NCBI GenBank assembly: GCA_051362555.1
Contig: CM120648.1
Location: 4,770,587 to 4,834,586 of the forward strand
Length of the DNA stretch: 64,000 nucleotides
Source of the DNA: Lingula anatina
Taxonomy: Eukaryota; Animalia; Brachiopoda
Reading direction: 5' to 3'
Position 1 is the first letter of the stretch. The number at the start of each line of letters is the position of its first letter. The translations under genes were made by a program, and so were the position numbers. Shown here in pieces: positions 11,843 through 60,898 of this stretch. Under the pieces are notes generated by a model. That model was not told where the DNA came from, searched no databases, and saw only the letters and a list, made by a program, of their open reading frames with translations.

Positions 11843-11848
11843 TTTATT
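11843..11848 (-). terminator. Candidate polyadenylation signal AATAAA of the precursor gene
   Basis: First AATAAA I could find on the minus strand downstream of the stop codon, implying a ~1.4-kb 3'UTR. Scanned by eye. Confidence 0.3.
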
Positions 11849-13210: not shown

Positions 13211-14489
13211 TTAGTATTTGTAGGTCTTATACGGGTGATATGTATAATAACCTGTCGTATAGTACCGGTAATATGGTCTTCGCCACAGTTGCCATTTGTT
13301 AATCAAATAACCTATGTTTCTTCGCCGATGATCGAGAGTCTCACCATCGCTCAAATCTGGCTCTTCGTCTGGGATGTCATCTTCGTCGATTCGGTCGTCT
13401 TCAAATGTATTCGACTCTGCTCGCGTTAGACGGTTGAAGTACCTCGGATGTTGGTGAAGTTGGTTTAGTAGCGAGCCAATACCTCGTTTCTGAGCAGGGA
13501 ATCCATCATAATATGGCACAATAACTCTTGAGGGAAAATAAAAATCTTGGTACTGGTAGTAGTCCTCCAAGTCGCGTTTCCGTCTCGTTTTCGCAGCTTT
13601 CATTTGCTGGGCTTTATCGCTTGTTTCATTTTGATCGTCTATTGTTCTCTTGCCAGAGCTGTACCCTTTCCACCTGTTTATAAGCCGACCGATGTTCTTT
13701 TTATCAACGCCCGCCGTGTTCTGGTAGGCAACTGCAGGTACATATTCTGGGTATCCTCGCCAGTGGTTAATCACATGGCCGATGCTTTTCTTGTCTCCGT
13801 AAACGTCATCCTCACGTTTGTGACCGCCTCTCCACCGGTTGATTAACCTGCCGATGTTCTTCTTTTCTACAGACCCGTCAACCGCGTCGGTGTAGACTGC
13901 GTCATTTTCGTCGCGCTTGCCCCCTCCCCTCCACCTGTTAATCAGGCGACCTATATTTTTCTTATCTACTGACGCGCCAATGACATCAGCGTCGTCTGCT
14001 TCATCTTCGTCGCGTTTTCCGCTTCCCCTCCATCGATTTATCAACCGGCCAATATTCTTCTTTTCCACATCATCGCCATTTTCATGCGCACTGTCAGCTT
14101 CATCCTCGCGCTTGTGACCACGCCATCTATTGATAAGTCTACCGATGTTTTTCTTGTTCATGGAATCAGCCAGTTCTCCAGCATCGTCATAGTCGCGTTT
14201 ACCTCCGCCCCTCCATCTGTTTATCAGCCTTCCTATGTTCTTCTTGTCCATTTCTTCGTACAGGGACTGGTCGTTTTCCCCATCAAGTGAAATAGGAACG
14301 TTCGCATCAGCATAGTCTTCCTTTTTGGAGTTTGTTCCGCGCCATTTTTGTAGAAGCGCTCCAATATGGCGCTTGTCGTCCACGAGATCGTCTGCATGGT
14401 CGCTTTTCTTTCCTCTCCACTTGTTAAGAAGGGCGCCTATTGCGTGCTTTTTATGTGCCGGTGGTAGTTCGTGGTGCGTCTGATACCAT
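13211..14489 (-). CDS. Exon 3 (terminal) of multi-copy peptide precursor, ending ...YHPYKTYKY*
   Basis: Acceptor cttttacatgtatatcag|A completes the AG|A Arg codon and gives NIGALINR-W, restoring the motif across the junction. 1279 nt open to TAA at 13213-13211, with 11 further KK/KR/RRR-flanked motif copies. Total CDS 81+416+1279 = 1776 nt = 591 aa. Confidence 0.95.
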
Positions 14490-14825
14490 CTGATATACAT
14501 GTAAAAGAAGAGATAATATTTTAATCAAAGTAGTATTTGAGAAAGTTATAAACTATAAGGAAAATCCACATTATAGAGAGAACAAAAAATAAATGATATT
14601 CAGTTTCTCTTTACTGCCATGTATCAGCCTTCTGGGAACGCTAGTGACAGAAAAATCAGCTTCTAATGCTATACCGACAATTTTTTTATATTGCTAATGA
14701 GCACAAATGAGATGATAACGTGATCATTTACATGTAATTGTAGTCTTAGTGGCTTCTCACAAATATTGTAACACATTTAAATAATCTAGATATTTTCATG
14801 AATGGACGTTGGCCATTACAATTAC
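14490..14825 (-). other. Intron 2 (336 bp, phase 2) of the precursor gene
   Basis: GTAAT...tatcAG, AT-rich; splicing keeps the frame and the peptide motif. Confidence 0.92.
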
Positions 14826-15241
14826 CTGTTGATCAGAGCTCCAATATTTCTTTTTTGTTCGATAGCGTCTTCTCCGCTATCGTGGGCGTGTTCGCTTCTC
14901 TTTCCACCCCCTCTCCATTTATTCATCAGTGCTCCTATTCCGCGTTTTTCACCAACCTCCTCCTCTTCCGTGTTTCTGTCAGCGTCATCTCTTTTGTACC
15001 CCTTCCACCTGTTCAACAATCTACCAACGTTTCGTTTGTCGTCTTCTTGTTCGGATTCCCTGTGATCCTCTCTATGGAGTTCCATATCCCTGTGATCATT
15101 GCCTTCATCTTCTCGTTTCTTCCCGCGCCATTTGTTCAATAAGCGCCCAATGTTGCGTTTTTCTACGTCAGCTTTATTGATTTCGGTTGCGTCCTTTTCG
15201 TCAGGTGCTTGGACATTTTCTTCTTTGCTTGGTTCAGATAT
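14826..15241 (-). CDS. Exon 2 of multi-copy peptide precursor (ISEPSKEE...KRNIGALINR)
   Basis: Acceptor tctttacag|ATA, donor AACAG|gtaat (phase 2). Encodes KR-flanked NIGRLLNKWRG, NVGRLLNRWKGY, GIGALMNKWRGGG and the start of NIGALINR, with D/E-rich spacers. Confidence 0.93.
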
Positions 15242-18200
15242 CTGTAAAGATATGAATGACTGTTTTGAATACATGTTAATATGTTTCTTGGGAATGTAGT
15301 AAAATATAAATTTATGTTGTATTTGGATGTTAGAGACGTTGGTATCGTGTAACAGGGTCGTAGTCCGAGAAATATGCTTGGGGTATATAGCAGGACTTTA
15401 TAAAGTTGAAAAGAAAAAAACTTAACCAACTCCACCCTTCCCCGGCCGCAGCCTACGGGCTTAGGATGTGAGGGATAATCGATGTTTAAGGGAATAGCAT
15501 AAAAAGTCTTATATGATTAATATGAATTTTGGTATTGCAGCTTTAATATGGAATGCTCTCCAGATTCACACAACACAAGTGGTGATAAATCGGAAGCTTC
15601 ATTATTTCCCATTCTGTTTGGCAGTGAAGCGCCAACCAAAGAGTCAAATGATCAAAAGCTGAAAACGCAAACTCGTACATGAAACAGAGAGAACGGAATA
15701 TAAACGAACTTGCCTCACTTGCCGTCGCGTTCAGAAAAGATTTAAGACAACATCTTAATACGCATCTCTTCAAAATCATTTTCTTAGCCCTTTTTGCCAG
15801 CTTCACCATTATGAGCCTTCTTGATCTAGTTTTCCAAATCTTACACCTAATTTACGTCAAGTGTTTTTGACATCAATTTGGCGCTCTGCTAAGGGGCATT
15901 GTTTTGACTTATCAAAGTCACTCATTTTACTTTAATTTAAACTTCTTAGAGATGTTGTCTCGATATATACGTGACCTGATAAGGATTTGGATTATTCCCC
16001 CTCGTCACGTCGTTACTTAGTCGATTATTCTCTCCCATAACAGAAAGCAATTACCCCCTCCATGACAGTGACAGACTGGCAGCCATGTCCCTCAGTCGTT
16101 TTCAGTTAATTTAACGAAACTGAGAGTCTTTGTTAATGTAAAACGCCAATCAATTTTGAACGATTGATCTATTAACTATGACAAAGTTAGACGTCTGATG
16201 TACCTATGTCACAGTAAGACGTCTGATATTTCAGTAGGAATGGCCTCTTTATGTTCAGATTATCCATGGGAAACCAGAGCTAAAGGGTAAACAATGAATT
16301 GGTTAAAATTGATCAAAAATATTAGGCGCGACGAAAAATCTTTTATTCGTTTATTCATTTGCATTCCATTCCTTTTCAAAGTACTTACTCTCTTGAAAAC
16401 ATTTTAATCTGACATTGCCTTTTTGGCTTTCAGGTGAGATTAACCTTATTTGTACAGAAAGAAATGACGCTTCGCCTTATTTGTCCTCATCTGACCATGG
16501 TAATTAGCCACTTAATGGTTTCTAGATAATCTACTGGTACAAAATATCTTCAGGTTGCACAGTATTTTTCCTGTCGCGGCGCTTAAAATGCTGTGTTTCA
16601 GCCAGTGGTGATTGATAACGCCTAGTAGTAAGCTTAAGCGCTTTTATATTTAATTTCCCTGAAATGAATCGGTTATTAGGCCTATTTCTATCAGAAATCG
16701 CATTAGGTGCAGCTGACCATCAATAAATGTCGATGAAAGGTAATCAATTTTATACACTAGGTGGCACTACCGGATGGCTATAAGGGCAGTTACCGTTCAA
16801 GAGGAGACCAAACATAATGTTAACAGTATCTATTAACAGCCAAGTGGTTACGAAAAAACAAAAGGAATTATCAAATACAGATAGTTGAAATAAAGCAAAT
16901 TGGGTAGTGCATTGTAGTGACACTTTCCAACAGTAATGTATAACCGATACTACCCAAATACGAGTTTTATATTTCATTACGCTCATGTAAAGTTATAGCA
17001 CAGTGCTAAAAACTAAGCGGTGTTGAACAATATCAGAAGCAAAATTTCTTCAATCAAAATACCAAACAACTTCCATATTAGACCTAGCAAACAGAAAATC
17101 GTTCGATTGCTACATACTTATATTTTTTTTTTTGTTTCTATGGCATTTCTAAATTTTTGGACGTTAATCCCTTTTTTCTCAAAGTAACCTTCCATAATAA
17201 ACGATGATACTAGACGGTTTTAATTTCTGTTGAAGCCCACAGAATATCTAAATAACGGAGAGTATATCCGTAATTTATTGTTAAAAGGCGTCACTACTTG
17301 TCACCAAGACAATACCCGATGTATACACTTGCTATTCATGTTACCCGAATATTTAAACACTGGGAACAATACACGTCTTTTATTGTTACATGGAGTATCA
17401 ATTACCCGGAGATTTGTATCGTTGAAATAATACCAAGAATAATGCTTCCGCCACGGGAAAGCAATTTGTTGGCCGTGATATAAAATACAGATCTGGGCCC
17501 GTTCACATTTGGCGTGTTAAGATCGGTTCTGCGGCGCAGAGTTTCTTTTTGCCTTGACAAAATGCTATACGTTAATGGCGTTGAAAGTTTGTTTTTTCGA
17601 CAGCATGATTGCAATAAGCACTTCACCCAAAACGTATTTTTCACCTTAGATTGATTTCCAGTGGAACTGCTTTGCCATAAAGTGAATTCGACCCTAAAGT
17701 GCACAATGGCACAAGATCGATCTACGAAAACAGAGAAGCGCTTTCACGTCCACTTCACAGAAAACAGCAGAACTGAATGCGAAAACGATCGAAATACAAT
17801 AGCCTTGATTTCTATTATTAAGGCACACTACAGGTGTAATGTTTTCACCCGTGTCGCCTATCTTTTCTGATTACGCGGAAATTATGCAGCAATTTCTGAG
17901 TTACTTTGATGTCAAATTATTTGATGCTGCGTGGTCTATTCATACTTGCATGGATTTCCAATTTTGTTTCACAATATCTAGCCTGTGCGGCAATATCGTT
18001 TCTGCAAAAAAAAGTTTTATTTGATCGAATATGTTGTAGTTCCATTAATCTACACAAAAAAACTTCAGGACTTGCATATACATATATATATAGACGTAAT
18101 GGCTCTAATTCGTGCTGCCCCCCTCCCCTTGCATCAAGCCACATAAACATGGGGTGAGATTGACAGCATATCAGTGGTTACAGTGGTTTTATGAGATACT

Positions 18201-19347
18201 AGTGCCCAAGCAGCATTCTATTGTGTTTTTAAGGTTGTCAATATAGAAAAGGGTGGAAATACAGAAATAAGTTATTGATCCGTGTAAACGATGCTTGTAG
18301 TGTTGTACATAAAGTAGTAAGAAAAATGAGAAAAATCATTTCGACAGGAATAAAAGTTTTTCATGGGCACTGCAATAAAAGTAGCAAAAACGAGTAAAAT
18401 GATTGACACGTTGTAAGGAATAAACACCAGCGCAAAGCGGAAACAATATACCATTGGGGTTATGACTTTGGAAGATAATTAAACTATTGACATTCTCAAA
18501 CCACGCTGCGCTTGGTGCTAATTAGATAATACCCATTATATCTCTCTGTTGGATAGTACTTTCCTAGTACTGCCATGAAGGAACGTTTTCAAATCACTCT
18601 GAGCTTTAAAATGATAAAGTATGTTGACTCAAATACTGTGCGTCCGCCAATCTACTAGTATGTAAGACCTATAGGTTTTATAATATGATCAGTGTAATCA
18701 TTTATTTCTCAAACCACGCTGGATTTAAAACTAATTAGCTAATAATAGAGTTGTCGAAGGTTGGTAAGACGAAAGGCATGTAGTGTTAGCGATTGACTCT
18801 ACATGGAAATGGACAAAGCCCAAGAGATAATCGTTTCACGTTTAGTTCTAGTAGTTTCTTAATATAGTTTTACGGGGTCGGATATGATTGAACACGAGAT
18901 AAGAACGGGGCCAAATGTAAGACATGAAATGTAAAAGTTCGATGGAAGGTCCTGCCAGAATGCTGCCAAGGTTTGCAGAGCTGAGCGTCTAACAAGGGAA
19001 TCGATCTTTGTAAAAGACGAAATTTGCACGGGGCGATGGGTTTCACGAGAACGTAATTCAAGAGGTGAATATCGAACATCGTTTATGTTTGAGCTTCCAG
19101 GAAATGATCACTTTAGGATTGACTAAATATTATTTGTTTTCTCATTCTATACGCTGTACCCCGAGTTCCGTTCCAACTGAAAGTATTCTAATCTTGTTTC
19201 TCTACGGTGGATGGTGGGGCACGAAACGAAGAGTACTAGTAGGCCTAGCTGTACCCAGTAGTTGGTTTTAAAGTTTAGGACAACTGGAACCCAGCGCAAT
19301 GTTTATCTGGCATCTACAGTGCAGTGTCTGGAGAAGGCTTATTAAAC

Positions 19348-19504
19348 TACTTACGCGAAATGAAAATAAGAACCGTGTCTGGTTTTTGTCAACTAATGTT
19401 TTCATACCTTATTACATTACTGGAATGGGCTTAAAGTACTTACACGAAATGAAAATAAGAACCATGTCTAGTTTTTGTCAACTTATGTTGTCACACCTTA
19501 TTAC
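19348..19504. repeat. Diverged tandem duplication, period 89 bp
   Basis: tacttac[g/a]cgaaatgaaaataagaacc[g/a]tgtct[g/a]gtttttgtcaact at 19348 and 19437. Confidence 0.8.
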
Positions 19505-22500
19505 TGTCGGGGAGTGGATCAAGCGTCTAGTATATTTGACTTGATTTATATTTGAGCATAATTATCCATCAGCAAATGTACAATGTATGTTTAAGTGTGC
19601 TGCAAGAACTGCTGCCAGAGCTGCTTTTGCTCTCAATTGCTGTGTCAATTTTATTCTTTGAGCAGTGATGGCCTCAAAATGATTACATGTGCATGTATAA
19701 CGATGTTAACATATATATCCACATGCCTAGTATAGTAAATTCTATACTCCTTCCACATTATTTTTGCATACAATATGCCCTGTAAACGTAAAAGGAACTC
19801 AGTATGGCCTAGACAATCAGCCGTACACATGTACATCCTGATTATGCTGTGCCCTTCGTGAATTCACCATCACGCTCTCTTGACAATCTAGGCTTGTCTC
19901 TTTCTCGGATTGTAATTTTCCAGGATGAAATGCCAAAAAGGCACCTAACTCGATCGTCTGGATGAGAAAACGTCGCCCTACATGTTGAACCTATTCAAAT
20001 GAGGAAGGAATTACATGTAACATAGACGTATTTATCGTGTTATATTTTGATGACGGGTATACATCATGATGTACCTGTAATAAAAGCTGTTACTAGTGTT
20101 AGGGTGCTTAATTGAAAATAAAGAGGAGCTGTTCTCAGAAGGTTACATGAACTTCAGTTGCTTCCACTGGCATTTATGTAGATATTGTTGTATCTTAATT
20201 CTTTATATACGCCAGTAAATTGTATATACATTGTAACTGCGAAATCCCGGGTTACATTATAACATATTACATGCAATTTACTTACATTGCGTTTAGAGTT
20301 ATTTGACAGAGCAACCTGAATGGAAAATGTGTTTACTTTGAGGAGTTTAATGACCTACATACATGTGTTTCTGTGCTTTACTGTGACAGCTGAGAATCAC
20401 TGTGTTTCTATCTTTTATGAATGTTGTATACAATTGGCCGTGTCACCATGAAAATGGCCGCAACCCAAGATGTTCGGTGATTGGTCTTGTATCTATATCT
20501 GCAGGACTAAATCACAATTTCATTTCTGGGATATTTATCTTGATCAATTACTGTTTTAAACGGACAATGAATTGAAAGAGTTGAATTGCACAACGCTTGT
20601 CCACCTTGCGGCTTAAAGTGATTCTCGCGCTGTTCCGCTACATTGATCGTTTATCCAATTAAACAATATGAGAATGTGCGTACTTTTAGCAGTTTCTGGT
20701 AAAGATGAATATCAAATTCTAAAATGCCATTTTCAGAACTATTACTCGTAAATGTCAAACCTAAATGCAACCCTTACCCTCATGAAAGGCAGCATTGGGT
20801 ATGTCAAAATGCTAACCGTCAAAGACTAAAGACCTCTTTTGAATTTTATACTTGTATGACAATTAACCTACGTTCACCGCGTAAAATTGAACTCCATTTT
20901 TATTTTTTAGAATTCTTATTTACTTCCTGAATGTCAGGTTTTTCCTAGAATTGTCATTAACTTTTTTTTGAATAATTGATGTGTACACCCTTTTTCATCA
21001 TACATGAACTTAAAGAGTATTTGATATTAGATATTGCAACAACAATGCCTTCTCCGATCTTTGAAACTGTTGTAAAACACGGAAAAGAACTAACTATAAA
21101 TACAGTTTCCTTTAGACAAATTTTAAATAAAATATTTCCGATTAAGAAACAAGTTATTTGGCGATTAAAGACATACATTAGTGACTGAAACATCTGAAGA
21201 CTTATTTAGTATTTCAGGCATGTTCATGTAGCATGCAAAGGAGTTGGTCCTGTATTAATTGAAGGATAAATTTATTCTCTTACTTAACCCAACTTGCGAA
21301 ATGGCATAGAACCTTGGTTAAAGAAACAAAAGAGACAGAAAAAAACTATTTCACCGTTTTTTCCTTATTATATGTTTAATAATTGTGGATTCCTGTTTTC
21401 ACTGATGCTATTCTGCAGATTTGCAAGTTACATCGAACGTTTTTCGCCTATCGAAAGTTCGTAACTACCCCATGGTTGGAACCAAATGTATGTTTAATAG
21501 ATCAAAACGATGTCACTCGCAGCGTTATTTGTTCGTAGGAGTAGTTAATCACAGCGGTTTCATTTCTTTGAACTTAATCAGCAAAGTAAATTCTACCGTG
21601 CAACATGCTCTTTAGTCATGTTTCCGCGAAAATCATTACGCTTTCTAAAAGAGAACAATAACTGCAGTCCAGATTAAATACTTTTATCTCGACCTCTGGT
21701 CATATGGCCCGCAGAGAACATTTTAATAAAAAGCGAATCATCTGTTGCCAGGAAAACAGCAATTGGTTTCATCACGATTTATCAGTGATTTTTGAGAACT
21801 GAGTCAGGTTAGTTTTTATCACGAGGAGTGTCCGTGTTTGAAAACAGCAAGTAGAGTTAGAGTTGCTTGCTTTCTCCACATGAGAAACTAAAATACGCCG
21901 CGGATGAATGTTATCGCAAAATATGGCCATCGAGTTTTGCCCCTCTATTCATTTTTTGCACTTGTGGATGTACGTGCTATATATGCTATGGCATAAAATA
22001 CGAGACCACATGCTATCTCTTTATATACAATCGAGCAAATGATTTAAAAAGGTAGCCATCTGCTCCCATTGGTGAAGTAATCGTTATCAAAGATTCAAAC
22101 GGCCTAGTGAGATGTGCTAGCGCAGCCATACTTCACTGAAAACGCCCTGTGCGTGACAGATGTTTATAAGTAGAACCTGTTACTTAATCCGTTCGTCTTT
22201 TTTCCGTGCTCTCAGACGTTGCGTCTTATTACTTCAAGATAAATAAGGAAATAGCAACGGCACGCTGATTGGTTTTGGGTGACATTTTAAAAGTTGATTA
22301 AGCTTTGATTACACGAAAACAGTGTTTGCCAAACACAATTTATCTGCTTCGTTCGTGATTCACATAAGGAAATACACAGGTGCACACGCTGATTGGATTC
22401 ATTTGAATGGCAGGAATCAGTAGTGGTACGAATTACTGATCTTTATTCACGTAATGAAAGCATTGTCTAGACGCAAAATCGTAGTCGGTCGCTTTTGATC

Positions 22501-24739
22501 AGTTTGGCTTGCGTGGTTGCGTGAGAAGCAATAAGAAACACTAGAGCGTGGAATTACTGGTAATTCTGCACAACAACTTGTCCAATAATGACACGTTTTT
22601 TCAAATGTCAGCTTATTCAATACCTTGGATATCAACAGGAGACGTAGTTCTTATTGACTGTAAATCCACTTAACATTAGTCTGGGCGTCGTATGTGCCTA
22701 AGAACTTTTTTCTCCTCATTATTTGTATAGAAATGACGCAGAATGCTGGCCCCCAAACCGGAGGTGGTCTTGTGATTATAAAGAGAACCACTGGCGTCAT
22801 CTTCTTTAGTTTTTCTTATGCAATTAAAAGAATTTATTTAAAAATATCTCCATTCCATTTTCCATTAAAACAGAATATACTTTTTGACATTTTCTAAAAT
22901 ATACCGTGTTGTTGAATATGTTGGGATGTGTGTTAATCCATAGCCATAGTTCGGTTGAGGCTGACGAGATATTTGCTTCAAATGAAATTTCGGCCAGCAA
23001 TGTTTATTTCAGATATAATAAATTAAGAAATAAGATGGGTTCATGTCTCATTTCCTTCTCACTAAGATACTTTGATTTTAATTCTGCTCAATTTTTTGCC
23101 ATTTTGACGTTTTTAATATGACCTTCCAGTGAAACAATGAATCTACCATGTATGCGCTGTTACTGCATGCATATACCAGTTGCAAATGCCACGAACCACT
23201 CACCAAAGTTCATGGCATTTTATTACTATTACTACGAAATGAGATATGTGAAAAAGCAGACTAAGTGTCACTAATATCAAAATTGTCCACATTTTGCAAA
23301 TCGATTGTTACTAAAAACTCAAGATTGATGCTGTTTATTGCTTAAAACGATGAATAATCGATACAATAGGGGCATTTTTCTACCAGTTTTGACGGGTAAA
23401 ATCAGAGTTCACGAGAGGTCGTTTTGGCTATAAATTCCGTATAAAATAGTCGGTTTTGAAGTGTATGTAGAAACACTGAGTGCGCCTTAATCTCGTCCAG
23501 AATGGAAAATTAATTGCATTCATTTTATTTGTATATATAGTAAAATATAAGAACGCAAATAATGATATTTTGGTAAATGATCCTTTAGCCGCCATCTTTG
23601 GGAATCACCTTTTGCGTTTCATCAAAATATCCACTTATGTAGGCATGGGATTTCGTGTAAGTTAACTACAAGTTTATGGATAAAGGGGTAGAATGCCATA
23701 AGATACGTACTATCTTGGTACATTTGCACAATAAACGAAGTGTTGTCGCACCTTTCGGTAAAACCCGGTTTGGGCGAAGTACATGTACGATTCAAAATAA
23801 ATTGGGGTTGTCTGTGTATCAATATAGATTAAAAACTTAAACAAAACTAACTCGACAGTCCCACTTTGTCAAATTTAAATTTAATTAAATTGTCAAAACT
23901 GTTAATAATAAGGTTTTTATTTTCACGAACACTAAATGTTCTTAAAAGCGGCATACATGTACATGTACAACAGGGTTGAAGAAAATAGTTTGTTCCCAAC
24001 TGATATGGTTGTATTGAGGAATTCATTTAACGTGTGACTGGCCTTCACTCACACATGCACGGTCTTCACAGGTTAACACGAATCAATGCTGCTGTCAGTT
24101 TTCATCAGGTTTGAAATATTACAAAGGAGAGCATAACATTGTTATGATCGACAATAAGTTCTAGTGTCTCTAATTTGTACGGAACCATAGTCGTTTTCGA
24201 CAATGTTGAATGGCCAATCGTTTTCTTTTTGACAGATAGGCAAACCTTGGGCAATAAATGATGTTGACGCACTTTGCGCTAACAATTACGCTCCCGTGCC
24301 ATTAACCTCGCCTGAACTTGTCTTCGTCGCGAATCATGGTGAATAAATTATATTTCTGATTTGACAATGATTAATTAAAATGAATAGCTCGAACACGTCC
24401 CACACCGCACCTTGCTTACTTGATTTATCTAGACTGCTGTGTTTTATGCTAGTATGAGGTAGAACACACATTTTGGTATCAGAGTCACGCTCAAGGTAAA
24501 CTGTTTTGTGAACCAGACAGCGTTGTGAGTTCTGCAAAGTGTTAATCATTGTTGTTCGTTGGACGAGGTAATCATACGTGAATATTTCACTTGATAGAGT
24601 GAGAGCACTCAGATTACATCTCTTGTAAAGGTCATCTTCCTCATGAGAATGACCAGTAAACCAAATTGTGCGTGTGCAGGGTTTTTTTTACGCTCGCGGT
24701 TTTTATTTTGATAACCTATTGATCTGTCTCATATAGCCT

Positions 24740-24741
<2 letters not shown>

Positions 24742-24787
<46 letters not shown>
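24742..24787. repeat. (TC)n microsatellite
   Basis: Visible directly. Confidence 0.95.

Positions 24788-24793
<6 letters not shown>

Positions 24794-26134: not shown

Positions 26135-26137
<3 letters not shown>

Positions 26138-26196
<59 letters not shown>
26138..26196. repeat. (AT)n microsatellite
   Basis: Visible directly. Confidence 0.95.
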
Positions 26197-26199
<3 letters not shown>

Positions 26200-26560
26200 C
26201 TTTAGTACTTAGCGCTTTACATGATGTAATGCAGACCCGCAGCCTTTTTGGCTGGGAAAAGGTCGGCTCTGGGTTATCTTTGATCTAGTTTCATGGTAGA
26301 AGATCCACTTTTTCAGAAAAAGATCACCCCCTGTGAAATTGCTGGCTACGGGCCATACCGTACTATGTGACACTGAATGCAGGGGGGGGGGTACGTGTTC
26401 TGATACTAACCTACCGATTGGGTCGGAACTAATCACGCAGTTTGCACTCCCAAGGGGCTATGGAACCTTTTTATGGAAACTTTTTAGGTCAAACTATCCT
26501 CCGTTTAATTAACAAAGCTTCGATTAACTTTGTCGCACAAATTTAAAAATAATGCACTTA

Positions 26561-26817
26561 GGCTTCGTTCACATGCAATGTCTATTTTCTAAATTCTATT
26601 TTCTATTCGCGCTATCTTATGATCACGGTCTGTGCACTGAATGTCCCGCCGCGTAATTACTGGCAGCGCGAGCCAGTTACTTATAGTAACTTATAGTAAC
26701 TGGCTCGCGCTGCCAGTAATTACGCCGCGGGATATTCAGTGCACAGACCGTGATCATAAGACATGCCGCAAATAGAAAATAGAATTTAGAAAATAGACAT
26801 TGCATGTGAACGAAGCC
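26561..26817. mobile_element. Palindromic Tourist/Harbinger-like MITE, copy 1 (in intron 1)
   Basis: Almost fully self-complementary (GGCTTCGTTCACATGCAATG...CATTGCATGTGAACGAAGCC), TTA target-site duplication on both sides, near-identical second copy at 60640. Confidence 0.92.
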
Positions 26818-29800
26818 TTAGTAATTGCCCTTTACCAGGGTTGGGAAAGGTTAGTTTTCACTAGATATTCACATCTTTTACTTTGTAAATTGCCCATCAA
26901 GATTATTTTCCAAAAAAAGAAAAATAAAATAAGGGTAAAATTCCTGTCACCCAGCTGGCTTTTGGTAGAGAGAACTCGGTGATTGGCGCCTTTCAACCCG
27001 TAACAAGTTATTTGTGGCACGTGCTGCATGTGAGCGAACTGATATTGAACGTCTCCGATCAGCTTCAAACCGTTGACGCACGCCCAAACAACAATGGACC
27101 TTCATCTCTGTTTTATTGTGTGCGTTTTTGACTATGACGCGGCTTATCTGATAATCAGTTCAACTAATTCCTTAGCGCTCTGTGGGAAATCTCACATCAA
27201 TCGTTTTCTTGTATCAGATAAAGCGTGAGAGACACTGTTACTTGGTGTTTCTTTCATTTAATTGCCAGGAAAAAAGCAACCTATACGTATAATTTCCTCT
27301 GTGGTTTGGACCAAATGTTATCTAATAAATGACTTGGTATTTCCTTGTGTCTGGTTTGTGCCTACAAGACGTGCAGAGCTATCTCACCACGCAGGACTCT
27401 TTGAATTACTACGACAAACGAATTGTCTTTTCCAGTTAAGATAAAAGGCACAAGACTCCTACCCTCTACCAAGACCACGCTGCATGTGTACAGATATATT
27501 TATCATTCCATGAGCCTATCACTTGCTGTGCACATATCTTTTCTGTCCGGCTGGGGCTTTAGAGCAATGACTATATGTACATGTATAGCATCGCTGAACA
27601 GAATTCTGGAAGAAAGTTCAAATGTCCATGCCTGTGACCCTTTTGCTTGATTTTTTACATGGATCATGTTTATTGAAATATATGGAATGCAACTGCCTGT
27701 ATCCCGTTAGCTTTGTAACTATTTGGGAACTGGTTCTTGTAGCTTCTTTTCAATGCAATTTCAGTCATATACCTATATGACCTGGGGACATTATGCCTTT
27801 GTGGCCCTTCTGGCCCATTTTGGCGCACTAGTTTTCTTGTCGCACTGTCGTGTAAGTACTATTTGATATCTTGAGCAGCCCCGAGAAGAACTACCAATGG
27901 TAGCTAATGCAATTTTTAACAAATGAGATCGAATATGTTTCTGATGTTGCAGTTTATGTGAATTGGGTCGCCTTGTTTCAGTTCCTTTTGTTCTCTATTT
28001 TCATAATCATTATCATTTTATTACATGTTAAGAGGAGTTTGTAAATGGGAAAAAGTTAATATCATAAAAGAAAGATTGAGGTCCCACTGTTCACTTAGGA
28101 CCCGGATGTGCTTACATCTATCAATTGTTTGTGTCCTTACTTCAAAATGTTTGCAATTAATTAAGATTGACCAGTAAGAAATTTCGGCGAAGGGAAACAT
28201 TATCTAACATTATCCAAGCAATATATAAATTTTGCATCAGAGAAAGAGTGCTACACGGCAATTTTGATTAACCTGTCAACGTAATGAAAAGCACTGAAGT
28301 TGCTTGTTTAAGATTAACATTGTTTCGGTAGATGACGGTTTCTTCGTAGTTGAATGTACCCTCAGTACCTAACATCTTCTTGTAATCCGACTCTGGAATT
28401 ATTTGCAAAAAAAAAAAAAAAAAAAAAAAAAAACACGTAGAATCTCTGTGAGGGTTTGTAGTCATAGATAATCCGATACTGGTAAATGCCAGAACTATAG
28501 CATGACAGATATTACCAATTAGAATACATTGTACTTACGATCGCGTGTAATCAATTCTTTAGAACAGATGTGTGCAATCAATGCTAAGACCAAGGGAAAA
28601 AACGGCTGTAATTGGATTATCATGTTTTAGTCTGTAGAATATAGACAGGAGCATATAATTATAAATATACAAATAGCTGAAATAGGTAACATGGCTGACT
28701 GCATTCATGCCCTAATAAGAAGGGTTTAATAATGTAATTGGCAGACAGCAAAAAAAAAAAAAAAAAAAAACATGTGGCATTACCAGTTGCTCACTAAAAC
28801 TTTTTTTGTATTTTCGTCTGCCTTATTTCATCGAAAGTGTACCCTGTATTACAAAGAACTTACATGTGGTGAACACGTGCTGCCACATTCCTACAGTACA
28901 TGTAGCAAAGTAAACATTAATGTTGTATTTTGAAAGTCAGGGGGTCTTGGATTCATTCCTGAATTCGATTTCTTGTTTCATTTTTTATGCCTCAATCACT
29001 GAGCGTCTTTGTTACAATTGGTTTTCATTTCTCATTTAAGCAAAGCAAATCATATCCTTTTATTTGATATTAAAGCTATCAGTTACGGTCAATATTGCTT
29101 ACAAAAGATTCCATACCGAGTTGAGATCTCATATCATATATTCTTTATCTCCACTGAATACTCACATTAACAATATCTATTAACGCCTCCCTCATGACTT
29201 TTTCACACCGAATTACGAGTTTGTTGGAACAAAAGATGTTTAGAAGATTCTTGCATAGTCTATTTCCAGTTCCATCAATTTGGATTTTCCTTTTCAGGCG
29301 GTCGTGGCATGCAAAGTCGCTCAGGATATGGTATATTTGCCATGTTCCTTAAATCAACTCATTAATAAGGCGGCTTTGAGATGACAGTTTATTATCGCAA
29401 AAAGATTAGTGATGAGGAAATTTGTTTTTAAAAAGGAGACGGAAGTCGGTTGGACACGAACCAAAGCTCGGGTAATTGTGTTTAGTTAACGTTGACATTT
29501 TTCGTCCGTAACTTTATGACGTTTTGTCATTTATGAAATGTTATTTAACTACCGTTGGATCCCTGCGGTATGCAGTAAATTTCTGAATCCCCCGCTGTCC
29601 GCAAGCTTGTGTATAACTTTATTGATTGTTACATATGTTAGATCATTTACAACAACAAAAGGAATAATACATTGAACTGTATTTGATAAACACAATCCAT
29701 TATAAATTATATAGCTCCATAATATTGATAAAAACAAGTTATTATCTAAATTAATGTTACAATGGACTATATTACTAACTTTCCAAATAATTTTGCATCG

Positions 29801-30425
29801 TACTCAAATATCCGAAGAGTTTGGGCTCTGTAAATATTGCCACAAATAAACAACCCCGCGGACAAGGAAATGTGGTGTTACAAAATGAGACCTAGAACCA
29901 AGAATTTCATTTCTTTTTCTCATTTTCCGTTTGCGCACGGCCTATCAATCTTGTACAACAAGAACATAATATGGCATAAGTCAAATGTTATATACACATT
30001 ACACAACAGAAAAGCAAAAGCACTTAACCTAATTTTTAAATCACATAAGGCAAGCATTGCCAATTTCGTTTCCAATAAAAGTGGCCATTACGTTTGTAAA
30101 GCAGGTGATAATTCGTTCACTGCCCAATAACTGGCTTACACTGCCTTTCACGTATGTTCAATGATTTCCCTATATTCCTATATTCCCCTTGTTATTGCCA
30201 TTAATGTAATATGCCACTTCTCTTATGTTCATAAAATGGAAGAGTAATAAGGATGTTAGTCTATAGAATTTAATGCCAAAATGGAAACGGATGTTCTTTA
30301 GACAATGCGTAAAAAGGCAATTTACATGTAGCATGTCTTTCAAGTGGTTTCATTACCAGGGGAAATTTCGGTGTTAAGTTTTCATTTGAGGACGAAAACA
30401 GGCTTAGACCCATTCCCACAGACAG

Positions 30426-30657
30426 CATCAATCTACGTAAATCTATATATCCACCTTTGCAGGGATTTTGGCTGATTGCAATCGGCTCAACTGAATGGCA
30501 CGCTTCCTTTTGTTTATAATCAATAGCTTTTCTCTTTGTATAATCACCAGTTTTTCTGTATTCTACTCAACGCCCAGGAGGAGGCGTGCCATTCAGTCAA
30601 GCAGACTGCACTCAGCGAGAGTCCCCGCAGAGCTGAATCGATCTAAGTAGACCGATG
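30426..30657. mobile_element. Decayed fold-back element (old MITE) with ~80-bp imperfect inverted arms
   Basis: Left ...ggctgattgcaatcggctcaactgaatggcacgcttcc pairs with right ggaggcgtgccattcagtcaagcagactgcactcagc...; no clear TSD. Confidence 0.55.
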
Positions 30658-30825
30658 GTTTTTATATGAATGGGCCCTTACAAGTGGCCAGGCATAGTCT
30701 TAAAACAGCTGCAACGTACGCACGTCTCAAGAAAAGTGAATGAAAATATTTTAATTTTATTTGAATATTATACAAAAGTACATGTACATGTAGGGAGCAC
30801 GGAGAAGACGAGCCCACCAGCGAAG

Positions 30826-30860
<35 letters not shown>

Positions 30861-33800
30861 ACCGTTACAATATCCTGGTTCACCAGTGCAAGTAATAGCC
30901 TTTTATCGTGCAATATTCGATGCCAAAGGATCACATCCCTTGGGACACGACTTCCAGCATGACCGTGAACATTCCAGCCGCCGTGTGAACCTAAAATAGT
31001 TTAACTTGCCACTACTTGCCACCTTTTTTCATGGAGCACAAACGTTAATAAAAGCTCGATTCCCTGAAGTAATAAAGGCACATTATTGACCTGTGTTTTC
31101 GAAATAATCATACAAATGAACCCAACAATGCAGCAGTTAATCATTTGTCAGTGTTCAATGGGATTTAACTGCTTAACGTGAAAGATGACAGAGTGGTTTA
31201 AGTGAAAGTTCAAAACAAGGAAACTTAAAACTTCTTCTGAAATGGACTTAATTTGAACTGGTGACAGTCTCACTGACGTCTGCAGAAGACCAGATTGCAT
31301 GGTATTAGATAAGCCTATGGAAATGAAAGCCTACTGTATATTTGAGATATTTGGTATTTAGTAATTTCGTTTTTGACATTTTGCGGGGCTGAAGGGGCCA
31401 AGATTGTAAGCTTTTGTTTAAACCGGGTTAGATTTGGTTTATTAGTGAGTCCACGAGTTAACCACATGATATAAAGGGATACAGTATACTCAATATTGAC
31501 CATCATTCATAATAAAAAAAGTTGGTAAAATAAAATATATTCACAAGTTGAATGGAAAGCCATGACGACATTAACAGGGAAGAATTAAATTTTTCACTTC
31601 AACTACATCTCGCTGCGTTGATTGCAATAACCTGTTGTTGATACACATCCATCATTCATGTTCAGCGTTCTGTAGATTTTTATCTCATCGATACATAAGA
31701 TAAATTGGTGTGGCAACATTTTTATTGTTGTGACTTCTATTATAGATATCAATAGTAACGAAGTATGCTTAGAAGATAAATAACCTACACATTCCGAGTT
31801 AGATGTTTTATCGTAATTTCGAATAGTATAAACGTTCGAATAGTATAAATATGCATTTTGGTCTTTTTAGTAAGTATAAATTTGCATTAATAGCATTCAC
31901 AGACAACAGTAGTGTACATCTAATGGCCGACATCTGCCAAAAATTCTCCCAGGGGTAAATATCAAGTCATCAAAAAAAACCATTCTAGAATACATGTATG
32001 AAAATCATTGAAACGCACGTTTTGTGTGCCCATTTCGTTAACACCCATTAATTTGTGCCTGCTTAAAATCATAAAATTAATCAACATTAGTGTTCTGTAT
32101 GTTGAATCCAAGGCCATTAGGTAATAGAAGCATGCTGCAAATAGCATGCCCATGGCTGGTTCTGAATATATGCCAATATTCGACATTAAGGAAAGTCTCT
32201 AGGCATCTTTGCCATCCATCATACGCTATTGCCTCCGGGGAGAGTAAGGCTAGGGACACAGTAATCGCGAGACTCGTTGCTGCTACTACCCCCCAAAAAA
32301 CCCTTAATGTAGATATATGCTACAAAATGTAATTATACCAGAAAACTCGAAAAAGACATTTCAATGACGGTGGCGGCGGTTAGAATCTGAACACCCTACC
32401 CTCACGTCATTTCGTGATTTCCAAGGGCATTATCACCAATGCTGAAAATCGGTTTTTATTTTTTGCTCATGACGACCAGGAAACATTGCATGAAGCCATA
32501 AAAGATTCCATCTGAAGGTTTCAGTCCAATTTGGTCTGGTTTGAACCAGCCACTTCAGCTAAAAATGTGGTAATCGGTTATATCTAAGCTTTCGCCAATT
32601 TTGAACCGATTACAAACTCAAATGTACTTGTAGCAAAGGCCACTTTTCAGAACTGAGTGGTGACCTAATTGGCATATGCCGAATTTCAAGGAACAATGAG
32701 CTTCTCATAGTGGCCAACGGAACTGTTATCACTGTCTTTAAGTTAGTCTTTCAAAATCCATTTACGGCGGTTCCCAAGAGTAAAGCCCTTTCCTTGCACC
32801 AGAGGTGCGGTGCCAGAGGCGCTTCTCTAAAATCTAATTAGCCATCTTAAAAGAGTTTCTAATGACATTATAGTAGAAAGTCAATGGTAAAACAACAGTT
32901 CTCTGCAATACAAATGTGATGCACGTGTTTTTTTTTTTTTTTTTTTTGGGGGGGGGGTACATTTTTAAGGAAATAAAGTCAAAGTCTTATAAACGCTGTT
33001 AATTGTTATTTTGAATTCTCCCTATGATATTTGAATATGGATAAACGGGATTCCTTGAAAATATGGCCATCACTTGTCAAAATGGAAAACAGTGTACAAA
33101 TTAAATGTTACTGATACTTGTATAGCCTGAGTCATTATTGACAAGCGTACGCGTAGACATTGAAGCAGTGGATAATGTACGAAAACACTGTATTCGTGTT
33201 CTAAAACAACAGAAAATTATTTTAATACCAAGAGGTTCTATATTAGTGGGAAGGAAAACAGACAATTATCAATGAATACGAAATCAGTCGAATACCTATC
33301 TCAAACAAATGCCACCATGCCGCCGATCCCGTTTTTTCAATTCCCAAGCTTTGATAAATGCCAAATTGACAATTATGTTCAAAGATAAGTCTGAGCACGT
33401 TCTGATGTAACGGCACCGTGGCGTGATTCCAAAGACAGACTGCGAATTACAAGTAATGATTATATACTTAAACAGTCAACAAGTGCGTGCCTTTCTATCT
33501 AGAAGGTACTTACATTAATGCATTGATCCCTTTATGGGTTTACAATTAACGATGGCAATTGTCTTGTTTTGAACGCGTGATATTAACCAAAGGGAAGACA
33601 TAAATTTTTAGTGGAGTAGTTGTGTTTACACGAGAACTATCCGTTTTGTACTCAGAAAAATGACCTAAAAAGCGTTTTAAACTCATACTCACAAATTGTT
33701 TGATACATTATGTGTGGTTACCGCAGTCAAACATAGTCCTTTTGTTTTTATATTTCTGGTTTGTTGTTTTCTTCTTTCTCTCTTTTCATTTCTTACTTCT

Positions 33801-34842
33801 CTTAAGATATGAACTGTTATGAATGCCGAGTATCAGTGAGAGGCGTGATGGACCCGAAATACGTAATAAAACATATATATATCGGTTAATATTCTCAAAA
33901 TCTAATTTCCTTTCCTTTAGTTGTGTGGTGTTTATGAAATAACCAGACCACGTTTCTCATTTCGAACATTTGTATGTTATCAAATCATCACAGCAACGTG
34001 TCTTATTTTTCTGTAAATCATTTTGATATCGCCAGCCTCCGCATCTTTTTTCATCAGAGTTTTTTCATCAACAATTAATAAGATTTGCCAGGGTACCACG
34101 CTCCTGACACTCCCACACGGCCTTTACCGTGAGCTGTTCAAGACACTTCATTAGCGGAGCTTTGTAACTTCATTAATTCACGGCTCACATTTTCTCGTTC
34201 AAGTGATTACCTAAAATCATTTCTTTTCATTTCCCCTCAAAGGGCACGCAGCTCCCAATAAAGACAACTGAGTTGATCTGTCCAACTCAATCACGTTGTT
34301 GTGAGCGACAGGAAGACAGGACAAAGTTGAATGAAAGTTGGACCTTTGTGTTTTTTTTTTTGTTTGTTTTTGTTTTTGTTTTTGTTTTTTGTTTTTTTTT
34401 TTTTTGAAAATTAATACGGCTTGAAGACGGCCAAATGACGGCTAGGACATCGTATTCTTAAGAAGCTGTCTGTTAATTTCTTGATGCAATTGTTATCCAC
34501 TTGTGATATTTCTGTCAATATTCGGTGTTTGTCTTCAATTACCAGAGTTGAATGCAGTGACATGGCGGATCCAGCAGAGGGGAGGGGGGCGAGGATGAAA
34601 TAATTTTGCCGCCAAAAACGATGTAAATACTCACAAGTAGTTTGCAACCGACGTGCTTGTCACAGGCGAGCCCTGTCTCCACTGAAAAATAGCGTATTTT
34701 TCACCAAGCAATATTTATCACATAACATAGCAAAAGCGTGTATCTTACGCTTATTATTACACTTGTTTTGAAGGGGAATAAATACATGTATGAAACAGCA
34801 CAGTAAACGCTCACATATTAACTGTATGCAGTGTATGTAGGA

Positions 34843-34949
34843 CACAGAAAACACATAACGTTATTATAACGTTACCATAACGTTAATTTTACCAAAAAAC
34901 GTTATCACCACGTTATGGTAACGTTATAAAACGTTCTGTGTTTGCTGGG
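34843..34949. mobile_element. Short AACGTT-repeat fold-back remnant ending TGTTTGCTGGG (MITE-like)
   Basis: Repeated AACGTT palindromes arranged symmetrically (ataacgttaccataacg / cgttatggtaacgttat). The right end reads CCCAGCAAACAC on the minus strand; the left end is degenerate. Confidence 0.5.
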
Positions 34950-37900
34950 CTGTTATTTTTGAGGGAGAACGTAGGATAGGAGAGCACGTACCCGCTATGC
35001 CTGCTGTGACTGTCCTTGGATCTGTAAATGCAGACCCCACTTGCTCTATACTTGCTCTGTACATGTCCCAGAGGTCATCTGGGTGATGACGTCATTCTTA
35101 TTCAAAATTACTCGCTCACATTACAGAAAGATGCAGAGAAATATCTGTGAATATCTAGTGAAAATAATATCGCTGTGGCCCCTGGTAGAGGATAGCCTTA
35201 TGCAGGGTTTTACAACATGATGAGGGCACGAAAACAATTTTGCTTTCTTCAATCTGACATTTAATTTTGACTGTTGATTTTCTGATCGATAATAATTGAA
35301 ATATGCACGAGATATCGCGCAGAAATATAATCACAGCGCAGATTCCTATGAGCTTTCTGTCAATCTCTTTTAAGTGGCGTTTCCAGTCCACGGCTGACCG
35401 CTTAATATTAGAACGTTTTAGCGCAACTTAAAGTATGTGTGATAACGTTGTTCGTAGGAAGTCAGTTTTATGACATCGGATTGTGGGTATTAGATGTACT
35501 CATATGGTAAGAAATCGTGGTCTGTCTGCCGGCGTTAGGAAACTGAGAGTCTGTGAAACAGAAAGTCCGCCCTCCATTTAGTAACAATGGTTAGGGTTAG
35601 CTTAACATAAATCAAAATCTAGGGCAAGGCTTACCTGTACAAAGGAATGGGAAGCGGACTCTCTTTTTGGGGCATTCTCTGTAACGTTACATGGGAATAG
35701 TAGGTGCTAGATTCTGTTGTCAAAAATTATTCGCATTAAGTAATGGACTCTAAGAATTGAATCAGCCCAGGAGAGTTTACATTTTTAAGTCTCTCTTACA
35801 ACGTAGACTGCACTGGAATCTGGGTCCTTTCATTCTGTACGCCATTAGTCGTATAAACTGACCAGCGGTCGGCGTATACTGGTGACCAATTCCCAACATA
35901 TACTTATGGTGGATTGCTGCTTGGCTTGCTATCATCTGATCATCGCATTCGTCGGAGAACGTTAGCAACTGAACGCGTGAAAAGTGCACTCCTCTTACCT
36001 GACGAGGTTATGAATTTATTGGCGTGACCGAAGGCAACCAACACAAGGGAACAAAACACTATGAATTATTAAAGTACATTGCCACTTTTCAGCAAAGAAT
36101 CCGCCAGGATGAGACATGTTTATATTTGTGATTTTTGACACGGTTCGATTATTTGCGTGCGATAAATACAATAAATAACGCAGTGACACGCTATCGGTCA
36201 ATATTGACATCGTTCCCTAGACTTTGGTATGGCGACCCTTGACCAAACAAGATTGCTCTGCCCGCCAGGTAACTGGACTGTAGGCTGAGGCAGTGCTTGG
36301 GGAGGAGGGGGGCACTTGGCTGCAAGCCTACAATGCATGTAAGCAGGTTATTTGTACCGCCTGTGGCACCCAGCAAGACGCTGAAGGAAAAATGAGCGTC
36401 TTCTTATGGACTAGGGGAAAGCAAAACTTTAAAAAGATAACAAAAATATTTTCAATAAGAATAGTATCTGGGGAGGAAGCGAACAGCCTTGTCTGCCAAA
36501 CCCGGAAATAGCTTTCACGATTTTCGTCAAAGTTTTAATACTTTGAAAGAAATATGTGAAAGTTATTTGAAAAACCTGAATCGCGCTTTACAACTTAATA
36601 CCTTTTAGAATTTGCCGTTAAGTGCATGTTTACACCACTGCTCTAATTTTTTACGTCAAGGTCTGGCAGGTTATATTGTGGGTCATGTTTTATTCAGTAG
36701 ACCATAAATGTTACCTTACTAGGTTATGAACTGCTTGCTTTGTGATCCAATAATCGCTGAAAACATTCAATCACTCCCAGGCATCACGCTTCTCGTTCAT
36801 ATCTTCTGGTGCTTTCACAACGATCTAAACAAATTGATGAGACCCTTTCATCAAGGAAACATCAATATGGGGATAAAGAGCTCCTTGTCAACAGAAAGAT
36901 GTGCAATTTATGCCACTTGTGGTGGATATAAATCCTTTTCAGTGCTGCCTCGGGCGCGCTTTGATGATAAATGTGAGTTCAAACGGCGCAAAGAGGGTGT
37001 CTGCATTGATGAGACGCAATTTCAGTTTTCGAAACCGGTTTCTTTGCAATAGAAGGCATAAAGAGCTGATATTTTGACAACACAAAGATGAGTTAACAGG
37101 TTTCAGTGCTACTTTTAGCAACTTTCAGAATGATGAAATGATTTATCGAATCCCCATTAATGCCCTTTATCTGACAGTTACGTCAGAGTAATTGTTCGGT
37201 CTCAAGAATAATTCGCGATTAAGCTGTGCAGAAGATGGCGTAACGTCTTGACTCTGATATCCAATTTCCTTTTGAATTTTTCTAAGAACCAACCAAAATG
37301 TTGTCCAGTAATGTTCAAGTACAGAACGAGTTTGCACCCTGGATAATTATGACTTTAACCGACACCGGTCAAACAAAACAAACCTAATACAAATCACAAC
37401 ATTTAAGATAACGCTAACGTTCCTGACAGTGTTATCAACACATACATATATAGTTTTAGCATTGGTTCATGTGGAATCAGACTGACAAAAATTAGTATCA
37501 AGCTAAGCATTTCTCTGTCAGTAAGTCGTACATGAATCAATGTAGTATCAGACGACATAAACTCTAAACCTCGTTGTTCTTGGTTTCCCCAGTCTAAGTA
37601 CTTATCTGTAGGATGGAAGTGGCATATATCGACCGAAAGATAACGACAGATTAAGGGAATAGCGATAGACGGATTTCTTCGCCAATCAAAACGACCTTGG
37701 AGCAACGTTAGATTATTTTGGATTAAATGAAATCCACTTTGTTCCTGGCACGTAATAGATTCTGGATATTCATTTGTACTGCTCACTGCATGCTTGTGTG
37801 TTACTGTGATGTTTTCCAAGTAAATCGGCTGAATTTTTGTCACAATAATAAGTTGACTTTTGATGCTGGTGTGCAAATTATTGTTTTATGATCAGCTTCT

Positions 37901-39618
37901 TCAAATAATTGCTATCGAACTGACATGCAGAGGTCTAAATTTGCAAGAAAAGGTACTTGTAAGTTGAGTTCACTGTTAACCCTGACATTTTATCTCTTGT
38001 ACACATAGTACGCTTAAAAATAATATGTGAACCGGGTAACTACGTATTTTGGTCTTCTTCCCAAATGTGCCCATGAAATATACATGTAGCATAGGTGCTG
38101 AGCGTACTTTTGCCCCAATTCCGCGTATTTAAGTGTGCGCCAATGAACTCAAAGCACTTCAGACTTGGGAGTTCAACATGTACACCATCTGAGGAGATTT
38201 CGGTGGGCTAGATGACCAAGATCGATCTCATTCGACCAAAATGTGTATTTTTGGTAAAGAGTTAGGATATGTTATATTGACATTGGGCAGGAAGAGATAG
38301 AAATTAAAAAAAAAACAAAAACAAAAAAAAGAAGGCAGGATTTAAAACCTCTGCCTTCTTGAATTTAAATACAACCGTTATCTTATCCCAGTCTCCCTGT
38401 TGTTAGATTTAATTTAACGGGAAGAAATAGTAAAACGTTATTGATTTAGATTTATTATTATATAAGGTATGGTTTTGAATTGAGGATGATGCATGAATTT
38501 CTTTATTGCTGTCGAAGTTACTGATGGTAATTCAATAATTCCATCTTTGTAACACAACACAAGCTGCGCGATCTTAAATTCTACGGAGATTTGAAGCGAT
38601 TTGAGGTAATTTATTGTCGCACTCCTTCATTTCCTGCAATTGCGTACAGCTAGTACATGTACAAGATAGCGCTTTAATTGCAGTGTAGTAAAGAACGGAA
38701 CAGCTTTCACTGGGACATCTTGGAAATTTAATTGATTTCGCCTTGTTGTTATCAAGAAAAGATTCTGCGAAATATCTGTAAGGCTATCAGCTTGATGGAC
38801 GGCTCATGCCTCATCACACTGCCCGTGTATTATCTGATAACAAGGAAATATGACTTAATTTACTGCATCGATGCGGGAAGGACATTGTCAAAACACTACC
38901 ATCCGTCTTTTCTTGTGCAAGGCATGCTAAATCATATTCATAATCTAATGCGATTTTTCCACAAGGGAAAGAACTTTTTCACCAGAAATTATTGCTTAAT
39001 TACTGTGTCGATACACTGACGACGGTCAATTTTTTAATTCTGTATGTATATTCCAAGACGCTAGGCATACTAAAGTATATTCCATTATTCTTCAAAACAA
39101 ATATTCAGCGATGGAAGAAATGGGAGGGAAATTAATACAAAAATTGCCTAATTACGGCGATGGTATAAATAGTCCGCTGTCTCTTTGTTAATATGAGCTA
39201 ATTCTAGTCCAATGCATACAAAATTATATAAATATTTTGTAATTTAAGACCAATTTTCCCAAAAGTGTGTCTAAATAGTCCACTGGTTCGTAGTTCGGAT
39301 ACCCTTTATATGCTTTTTAGGGGCATTTTGTTATATCTTTACTATGTGCTATGTTTTCCTGCACTGTTTTCAAACGGTTTGGATATATTTAAACATAACA
39401 GTTCCTTTGCGTGCTGATTGAGATATGCCTTTTAATGGACGCGTGTGTCAGTTTTAATACAGTTCACCTTATATTGAAAGCATTTTTATTTTCATTATTA
39501 TTTCAGGCTAAGAGGGTGAAAGATTCTAAGTTATAAGTGCAATCCCATGAAGTGTCTCTTTGAATGTCTAAATAAAATTCATTTCAACAAAATTAAAATG
39601 AAGACACCAATCTCTCAC

Positions 39619-39699
39619 CTTTTCATTGGCAGTGCTCTCTTGACAGGCGACAGTGACCGCCATTAGAAGCAGGACCATTCCCGCTTGATGTAGTTTCAT
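39619..39699 (-). CDS. Exon 1 of secreted multi-copy peptide precursor: signal peptide MKLHQAGMVLLLMAVTVACQESTA-NEK
   Basis: ATG at 39699-39697 has A at -3 (acaagATG) and an in-frame TAG 13 codons upstream. Basic n-region, hydrophobic core VLLLMAVTVA, small residues S-T-A before the likely cleavage site. Ends at canonical donor AAG|GTGAGA in phase 0, matching the phase-0 acceptor at 15241. The link across 24 kb is inferred. Confidence 0.8.
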
Positions 39700-60639: not shown

Positions 60640-60898
60640 GGCTTCGTTCACATGCAATGTCTATTTTCTAAATTCTATTTTCTATTTGCGGCATGTCTTA
60701 TGATCACGGTCTGTGCACTGAATATCCCGCCGCGTAGTTACTGGCAGCGCGAGCCAGTTACTATAAGTTACTATAAGTAACTGGCTCGCGCTGCCAGTAA
60801 TTACGCCGCGGGATATTCAGTGCACAGACCGTGATCATAAGACATGCCGCAAATAGAAAATAGAATTTAGAAAATAGACATTGCATGTGAACGAAGCC
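60640..60898. mobile_element. Palindromic Tourist/Harbinger-like MITE, copy 2
   Basis: Same ends as 26561-26817, TTA TSD at 60637-60639 and 60899-60901, ~122-bp arms around a 15-bp loop. Confidence 0.92.

Follow-up and report, generated by a model that had tools for sequence, protein, structure and literature searches.

A Lingula anatina gene for a probable secreted multi-copy precursor, likely a divergent HIGA-type neuropeptide precursor

The stretch of the Lingula anatina genome analysed here (64,000 nucleotides of contig CM120648.1, assembly GCA_051362555.1, positions 4,770,587 to 4,834,586; hereafter the window) carries on its minus strand, between window positions 13,211 and 39,699, a three-exon locus for a 591-residue chain with a signal-like start and 15 copies of a short peptide motif. 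That this locus is a real protein-coding animal gene we regard as practically certain. With a probability of roughly 0.7, we read it as a likely divergent HIGA-type secreted neuropeptide precursor, probably related to arthropod NPLP1 and having an orphan receptor; the gene likely belongs, as a divergent member, to the little-studied HIGA family of worms and would then not represent an entirely new family of signals.

Gene structure and precursor layout

Splicing three minus-strand exons at GT-AG sites (39,699–39,619, 15,241–14,826 and 14,489–13,211) yields a reading frame of 591 amino acids, with exactly the length and ends given in a preliminary description of this DNA. The coding part of the predicted exon 1 (39,619–39,699; 81 nt, 27 codons) begins with ATG, contains the signal-peptide-like segment and ends at a phase-0 donor, GTGAGA; the predicted intron 1 (15,242–39,618) runs over 24,377 nt from GT to CAG. 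Exon 2 (14,826–15,241; 416 nt, phase-2 donor GTAATT) holds an acidic pro-region, copies 1 to 3 and 23 nt from the start of copy 4, which is split by intron 2 (14,490–14,825; 336 nt, GT to CAG, phase 2), and exon 3 (13,211–14,489; 1279 nt including the TAA stop) provides the rest of that copy together with copies 5 to 15. The unspliced frame of exon 2 terminates at its donor, and the Trp of copy 4 is supplied by exon 3; because copy 4 is completed only by joining exon 3, the intron 2 splice is supported. The junction of exons 1 and 2 across 24.4 kb is predicted from the sequence: exon 1 was the best, under simple filters, of 332 ATG...GT phase-0 candidates lying 5' of exon 2. Only three candidates passed these filters, two of them with the donor at 39,619 and the third at 50,640, which was rejected as a microsatellite frame. 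Intron 1 held neither a phase-0/0 cassette exon with strong sites nor an additional motif copy. On the same strand, a purine-rich stretch 5' of the ATG (39,700–39,975) may represent the 5' untranslated region, and the first AATAAA 3' of the stop, 1.36 kb away (11,843–11,848), is a candidate polyadenylation signal.

The start of the chain is signal-like by hydropathy, with an uncharged hydrophobic core at about residues 6 to 18 (9-residue mean hydropathy 3.0); the sole Cys of the precursor is residue 19, in agreement with the earlier remark that none lies outside the signal peptide. The 15 motif copies and the basic residues said to precede each of them were likewise recovered (KR before six, KK before eight and RRR before one), and in 5000 shuffles of the protein such dibasic-anchored matches averaged 0.025 and never exceeded two, for a motif that was defined after the sequence had been inspected. 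A six-frame motif scan of the window found 14 copies, all in two long minus-strand frames at 13.2–15.4 kb and none elsewhere. On the minus strand, the cores of copies 1 to 4 start at 15,154, 15,031, 14,941 and 14,848, and those of copies 5 to 15 at 14,443, 14,368, 14,239, 14,149, 14,056, 13,957, 13,858, 13,786, 13,696, 13,483 and 13,318. Acidic spacers, as had been described for most intervals, separate the copies in 10 of the 14 intervals when at least 35% D/E is demanded of a separate spacer. After a furin-type RRKR site at residues 468–471 (13,574–13,585), 79% along the precursor, come DL and a spacer rich in Tyr and Phe, then the last two copies and a C-terminal segment of 21 residues after RR (13,214–13,276), which may be an additional peptide.

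Across the copies, Gly3 is invariant, Ile2, Leu5, Asn7 and Trp9 each occur in 14 (copy 14 has no Trp) and Gly11 in 12; when similar residues are grouped, I/V at position 2, L/V at position 5 and I/L/M at position 6 are found in all 15. The predicted peptides have 11–15 residues in twelve cases and are longer in three. The architecture of a processed multi-copy precursor that had been proposed is therefore retained as far as the signal-like start, the basic sites and the acidic spacers are concerned, but amidation by PAM is possible for only seven of the 15 copies, those ending in Gly.

Five copies, in a block at 13,826–14,239, have an identical 11-residue core, and yet in all 10 pairs 7–12 of their 33 bases differ, every change being synonymous; because identical copies diverge only silently, the protein is under purifying selection. 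Among all copies, differences are most frequent at the third codon position (0.63 versus 0.37 and 0.24). We rejected the explanation of the copies as a tandem-repeat artefact, since they form no DNA tandem repeat and their differences are concentrated at third codon positions. It is very probable that the product is a cleaved multi-peptide precursor, and the whole precursor should be disordered.

A single relative in sequence collections

When 5.8 billion protein clusters were searched by word seeding, with 7997 candidates scored, and 1.84 billion representatives were scanned in full with phmmer, the same single match came up each time, here called P0001 (E 8.9e-25 and 2.8e-25, respectively). 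P0001 is an unnamed protein of 710 amino acids from a one-member cluster, its source being a 2986-nt Logan contig, and is 30–36% identical to the precursor. No named precursor was returned; the one relative in the databases is this unnamed protein, at E ~1e-24.

The two proteins share a signal-like start, and the first copy begins at residue 58 in P0001 versus 57 here, so that an exon model lacking no exon fits. They also share the core x-[IV]-G-x-[AL]-[IL]-N-[RK], which occurs in P0001 in 17 dibasic-anchored copies, or 20 by a looser pattern, and a late furin-type site, RKKR-DL at residue 565 of 710 (80%), which corresponds to the RRKR-DL of our precursor and is followed by terminal copies. 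P0001 differs in carrying Tyr, Trp, Met or Leu at position 9 and in that eight of its 20 cores begin with His; it has six strict HIGA-type starts versus one here (copy 6, KR-HIGALL, at 14,336–14,368 on the minus strand), and it combines the N-R/K-W tail and the His-Val/Ile-Gly-Ala start within the same copies. The 21-residue C-terminal segment of our precursor, which contains nine Tyr, has no clear counterpart in P0001.

Other searches added no further relative. A profile search with the two-sequence alignment and a search with residues 262–470 of P0001 at E up to 10 each found P0001 only; a metagenome scan gave 593 pattern matches, none of which was confirmed; the PDB sequence search gave no match, and exons 2 and 3 and P0001 gave only sub-threshold matches in Pfam. 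Six motif strings taken from the precursor, P0001 and HIGA had no match in the main text of any paper.

Weighing the identity of the peptides

HIGA was first described from Platynereis dumerilii (GenBank KF515947; Conzelmann et al. 2013, PMC3890597), where it was listed without orthologs outside Platynereis, and was later found in nemerteans (nine of 13), and not in any of the 10 brachiopods and phoronids listed (Thiel et al. 2021, PMC8557429); neither a function nor a receptor is given in the excerpts of these papers to which our comparisons refer, and all published sequences below are likewise compared from excerpts. The statement in the preliminary description that the motif matches no family could not be upheld, since the copies resemble the peptide starts of HIGA and of NPLP1/HIGSLYRamide; the match had been missed because families with a conserved peptide N-terminus were left out of the list considered. 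Against the HIGA pattern x-[ILVM]-G-[AS]-[AL]-[MLI], the copy starts fit at positions 2, 3 and 6, and at position 4, with Ala or Ser, in five of 15; they also fit the NPLP1 pattern x-[IVLF]-[GAS]-x-L with a variable C-terminus. A seven-position profile built from the 10 distinct cores of the gene, in which p refers to a random 7-mer and is uncorrected, gave 4e-6 to 2e-4 for four hand-picked HIGA starts, 1.5e-3 and 3.1e-3 for two commoner ones, 1.5e-4 to 1.9e-2 for four decapod starts and 0.06–0.75 for four control families. In the ESM Atlas, where scores below 0.9 count as leads only, clusters named 'neuropeptide-like 1' ranked second and third for P0001 (0.85 and 0.84, four families being skipped). 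Homology of the gene with HIGA seems to us, from these sequence likenesses, a good deal more probable than not.

Several observations weigh against this assignment. The link to HIGA rests on a seven-residue motif plus the general layout, because the protein searches, which in the word-seeded case scored only about 8000 candidates each, gave no named HIGA or NPLP1 protein, although the presence of the Platynereis protein in the collections was not checked. The profile test is small, its motifs having been chosen by the analyst and its controls numbering only four. Position 1 is His in one of the 15 cores (two if a His-Ala-extended copy is counted), position 4 is Arg in eight, whereas HIGA has Ala or Ser there, and Trp stands at position 9 rather than at position 8, as in most of the Trp-bearing HIGA copies compared. 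The NPLP1-like peptide that directly follows the signal peptide in nemerteans is absent here. The top ESM Atlas row for P0001 was a prothoracicostatic peptide (0.86, again with four families skipped), and exon 3 led to tachykinin, prothoracicostatic and allatostatin clusters (0.79–0.81), with no NPLP1 row.

If the gene, together with P0001, formed a separate, undescribed neuropeptide family, as the preliminary description suggested for the gene, the x-I-G start would resemble that of HIGA and NPLP1 by convergence or through a very remote origin. Such a family would accord with the single unnamed relative in the protein searches, with the want of a Pfam family above cut-off, of a PDB match and of the motif strings in the main texts of papers, with the distinctive N7-x-W9-R-G tail, and with the p values of only 1.5e-3 to 1.9e-2 that the commoner HIGA/NPLP1 starts reach in the profile. 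However, short repeated precursors are routinely missed by whole-protein searches, so that empty searches are weak evidence here; the copies of P0001 mix the N-R/K-W tail with His-Val/Ile-Gly-Ala starts, and the HIGA precursors of nemerteans and Platynereis include Asn-started, KK-flanked and Trp-bearing copies. We give a separate family a small but real probability.

The net charge of the predicted peptides (+1 to +3 in 12 of 15) and the Trp in 14 of the 15 cores would also suit short cationic host-defence or venom peptides, masked by acidic spacers until cleavage, and precursors of that kind likewise place acidic spacers between cationic peptides. Yet only two of 15 copies have an 11-residue core whose helical hydrophobic moment is above that of 95% of shuffles, the copies keep their protein and diverge silently, which is the opposite of the diversification usual for defence peptides, and the closest described look-alikes are catalogued as neuropeptides in the excerpts compared; this explanation is accordingly improbable. 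The same Trp, lying near the C-terminus, and the prothoracicostatic-peptide cluster of the ESM Atlas, third for exon 3 (0.79) and first for P0001, might suggest a divergent MIP/allatostatin-B/Wamide (or annelid WI) precursor, but the motif of that family, x-W-x6-7-W-[G/I/L] (PMC3890597), needs two Trp and is matched by none of the 15 copies. Fourteen have one Trp or none, the last has two that are only three apart, and Trp is followed by Arg, Lys, Tyr or Gln rather than by the amide-donor Gly; with the family motif absent, this identity is largely refuted, and we give it next to no weight.

Around the gene, stop-to-stop frames of 45 or more amino acids number 549; the 300 longest gave no neighbouring gene above the curated Pfam cut-off, and Rfam gave no match in the window. 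The GC content of the window is about 38%, and AG and AC microsatellites are numerous, as in a large animal genome. Two near-perfect palindromic elements of about 267 bp, one inside intron 1 (26,556–26,822) and the other at 60,634–60,904, are about 96% identical, have arms of up to 129 nt and a 13-nt centre, and look like a young foldback or miniature inverted-repeat transposable element (MITE)-type mobile element. A short imperfect palindrome of 11-bp units lies at 34,845–34,947, and tandem duplications lie at 1,555–1,950 (195 bp, 96% match) and 19,342–19,504 (89 bp, 90% match). On the plus strand, a 101-residue frame at 6,732–7,034 contains an HPD-K string, which we take to be reminiscent of the J-domain motif; the frame has no Pfam J-domain match, and the resemblance is probably due to chance.

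Proposed processing and likeness to HIGA and NPLP1

Taking the gene as a divergent HIGA-type precursor, we propose a processing route that follows established prohormone biology. The signal peptide would route the chain into the secretory pathway and its granules, where PC1/3, PC2 and furin-type convertases would cut at the KR, KK, RRR and RRKR sites; carboxypeptidase E would trim the cleaved ends, the seven Gly-ended copies would be amidated, and 15 similar peptides would be released from neurons or neuroendocrine cells. Sites of the KK type are cut less reliably than KR, and some products may for this reason stay extended. A neural signalling role of the peptides is, by analogy, highly probable. 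Because conservation lies in the N-terminal nine residues and the C-terminus is variable, as in HIGA and NPLP1, the free N-terminus is likely to be the receptor-binding end.

As to the receptor, a G-protein-coupled receptor is an even guess, and a receptor guanylyl cyclase of the Gyc76C type a more doubtful one, made by analogy, since for NPLP1 peptides Gyc76C alone has been reported as a receptor. The NPLP1 peptide VQQ reportedly raised cyclic GMP through Gyc76C in work by Overend from 2012. Against this stands PMC12800252, in which Nplp1 showed no genetic interaction with Gyc76C or with any of 78 G-protein-coupled receptor and 12 receptor guanylyl cyclase alleles; the Gyc76C link, itself uncertain in Drosophila, is weak.

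As a single further precursor sequence, the gene is a modest finding; that HIGA and NPLP1 may be one and the same is the more valuable lead. NPLP1 has been described throughout the arthropods, its phenotypes in Drosophila relate to stress and lipids, and it has no secure receptor; if it and HIGA are the same, two families that look lineage-specific would together form a system spanning the protostomes. With one short peptide repeated identically five times, the precursor would offer a simple ligand for screens of G-protein-coupled receptors and receptor guanylyl cyclases. A link between HIGA and NPLP1 was not found in the literature searched, from which PMC3061863 and PMC4829154, containing both strings, had been left out, and subscription papers, figures and bioRxiv supplements may hold such a link. 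The excerpts of PMC7737342, PMC8398477, PMC5627052, PMC11787221 and PMC13551398 have no HIGA entry, and motif searches of the mollusc supplements of PMC6425005 gave no comparable multi-copy precursor among the matches listed.

The Platynereis HIGA precursor consists of a signal peptide and many KR-H[ILM]GAA[ML][NR] copies, some of which continue with Asn-Trp-Arg; four of its peptides, of 16–19 residues and three of them with acidic tails attached, were detected by mass spectrometry (PMC3890597). Our precursor shares with it, by motif and layout and not by whole-protein alignment, the signal peptide, the many dibasic-flanked copies, the acidic stretches and a conserved N-terminal start (x-[ILM]-G-A-x-[ML]-[NR] there) before a variable C-terminus, and the excerpts of PMC3890597 name no receptor for HIGA; it differs in that its copies are mostly started by Asn instead of His, carry Arg-Leu or Ala-Leu instead of Ala-Ala at positions 4 and 5, and are separated by spacers. 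The nemertean HIGA precursors have occasional KK-flanked and Asn-started copies with Trp-Lys-Gly (e.g. KK-NLGSAMRWKGG-KR), and Asn-, Tyr- and Phe-started copies occur in published precursors (PMC8557429), so that His1 is a tendency of HIGA and not invariant. The likeness to the nemertean precursors extends to short basic copies (8–13 residues there), many of them Gly-ended before KK or KR, to separate D/E-rich spacers and to internal furin-type sites, whereas the dominant start in nemerteans is HLGS and the N7/W9 pair is not conserved there.

In the arthropods, the HIGSLYRamides are peptides of the neuropeptide-like precursor (Veenstra 2016, PMC4888303), Drosophila NPLP1 peptides start with NVGTL, YIGSL and NLGAL (PMC4022047), and NPLP1 is described as conserved across Arthropoda (PMC12800252). 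Compared by eye, the decapod starts HIGSLYRG-KK and HLSSLARNN closely parallel HLGSIMRG-KK and HLGSLARHN of nemerteans; these near-identical starts and flanks bear on the evolution of the family independently of the window. HIGA and arthropod NPLP1/HIGSLYRamide have a common start, dibasic-x-[IVL]-G-x-[AL]-[hydrophobic], and judged by such motifs HIGA is probably related to NPLP1. We speculate, with the balance about level, that our gene and P0001 represent a Trp/Tyr-tailed branch that ties HIGA and NPLP1/HIGSLYRamide into one ancient orphan system with an N-terminal recognition motif, dating from the protostome ancestor and possibly acting through a receptor guanylyl cyclase. Unlike our precursor, NPLP1 lacks the N7/W9 pair and its copies are more heterogeneous; like it, NPLP1 is a multi-copy precursor with a conserved N-terminal start (x-[IVL]-[GA]-x-L) and a free C-terminus, with Asn-started copies in Drosophila and a mixture of amidated and non-amidated products.

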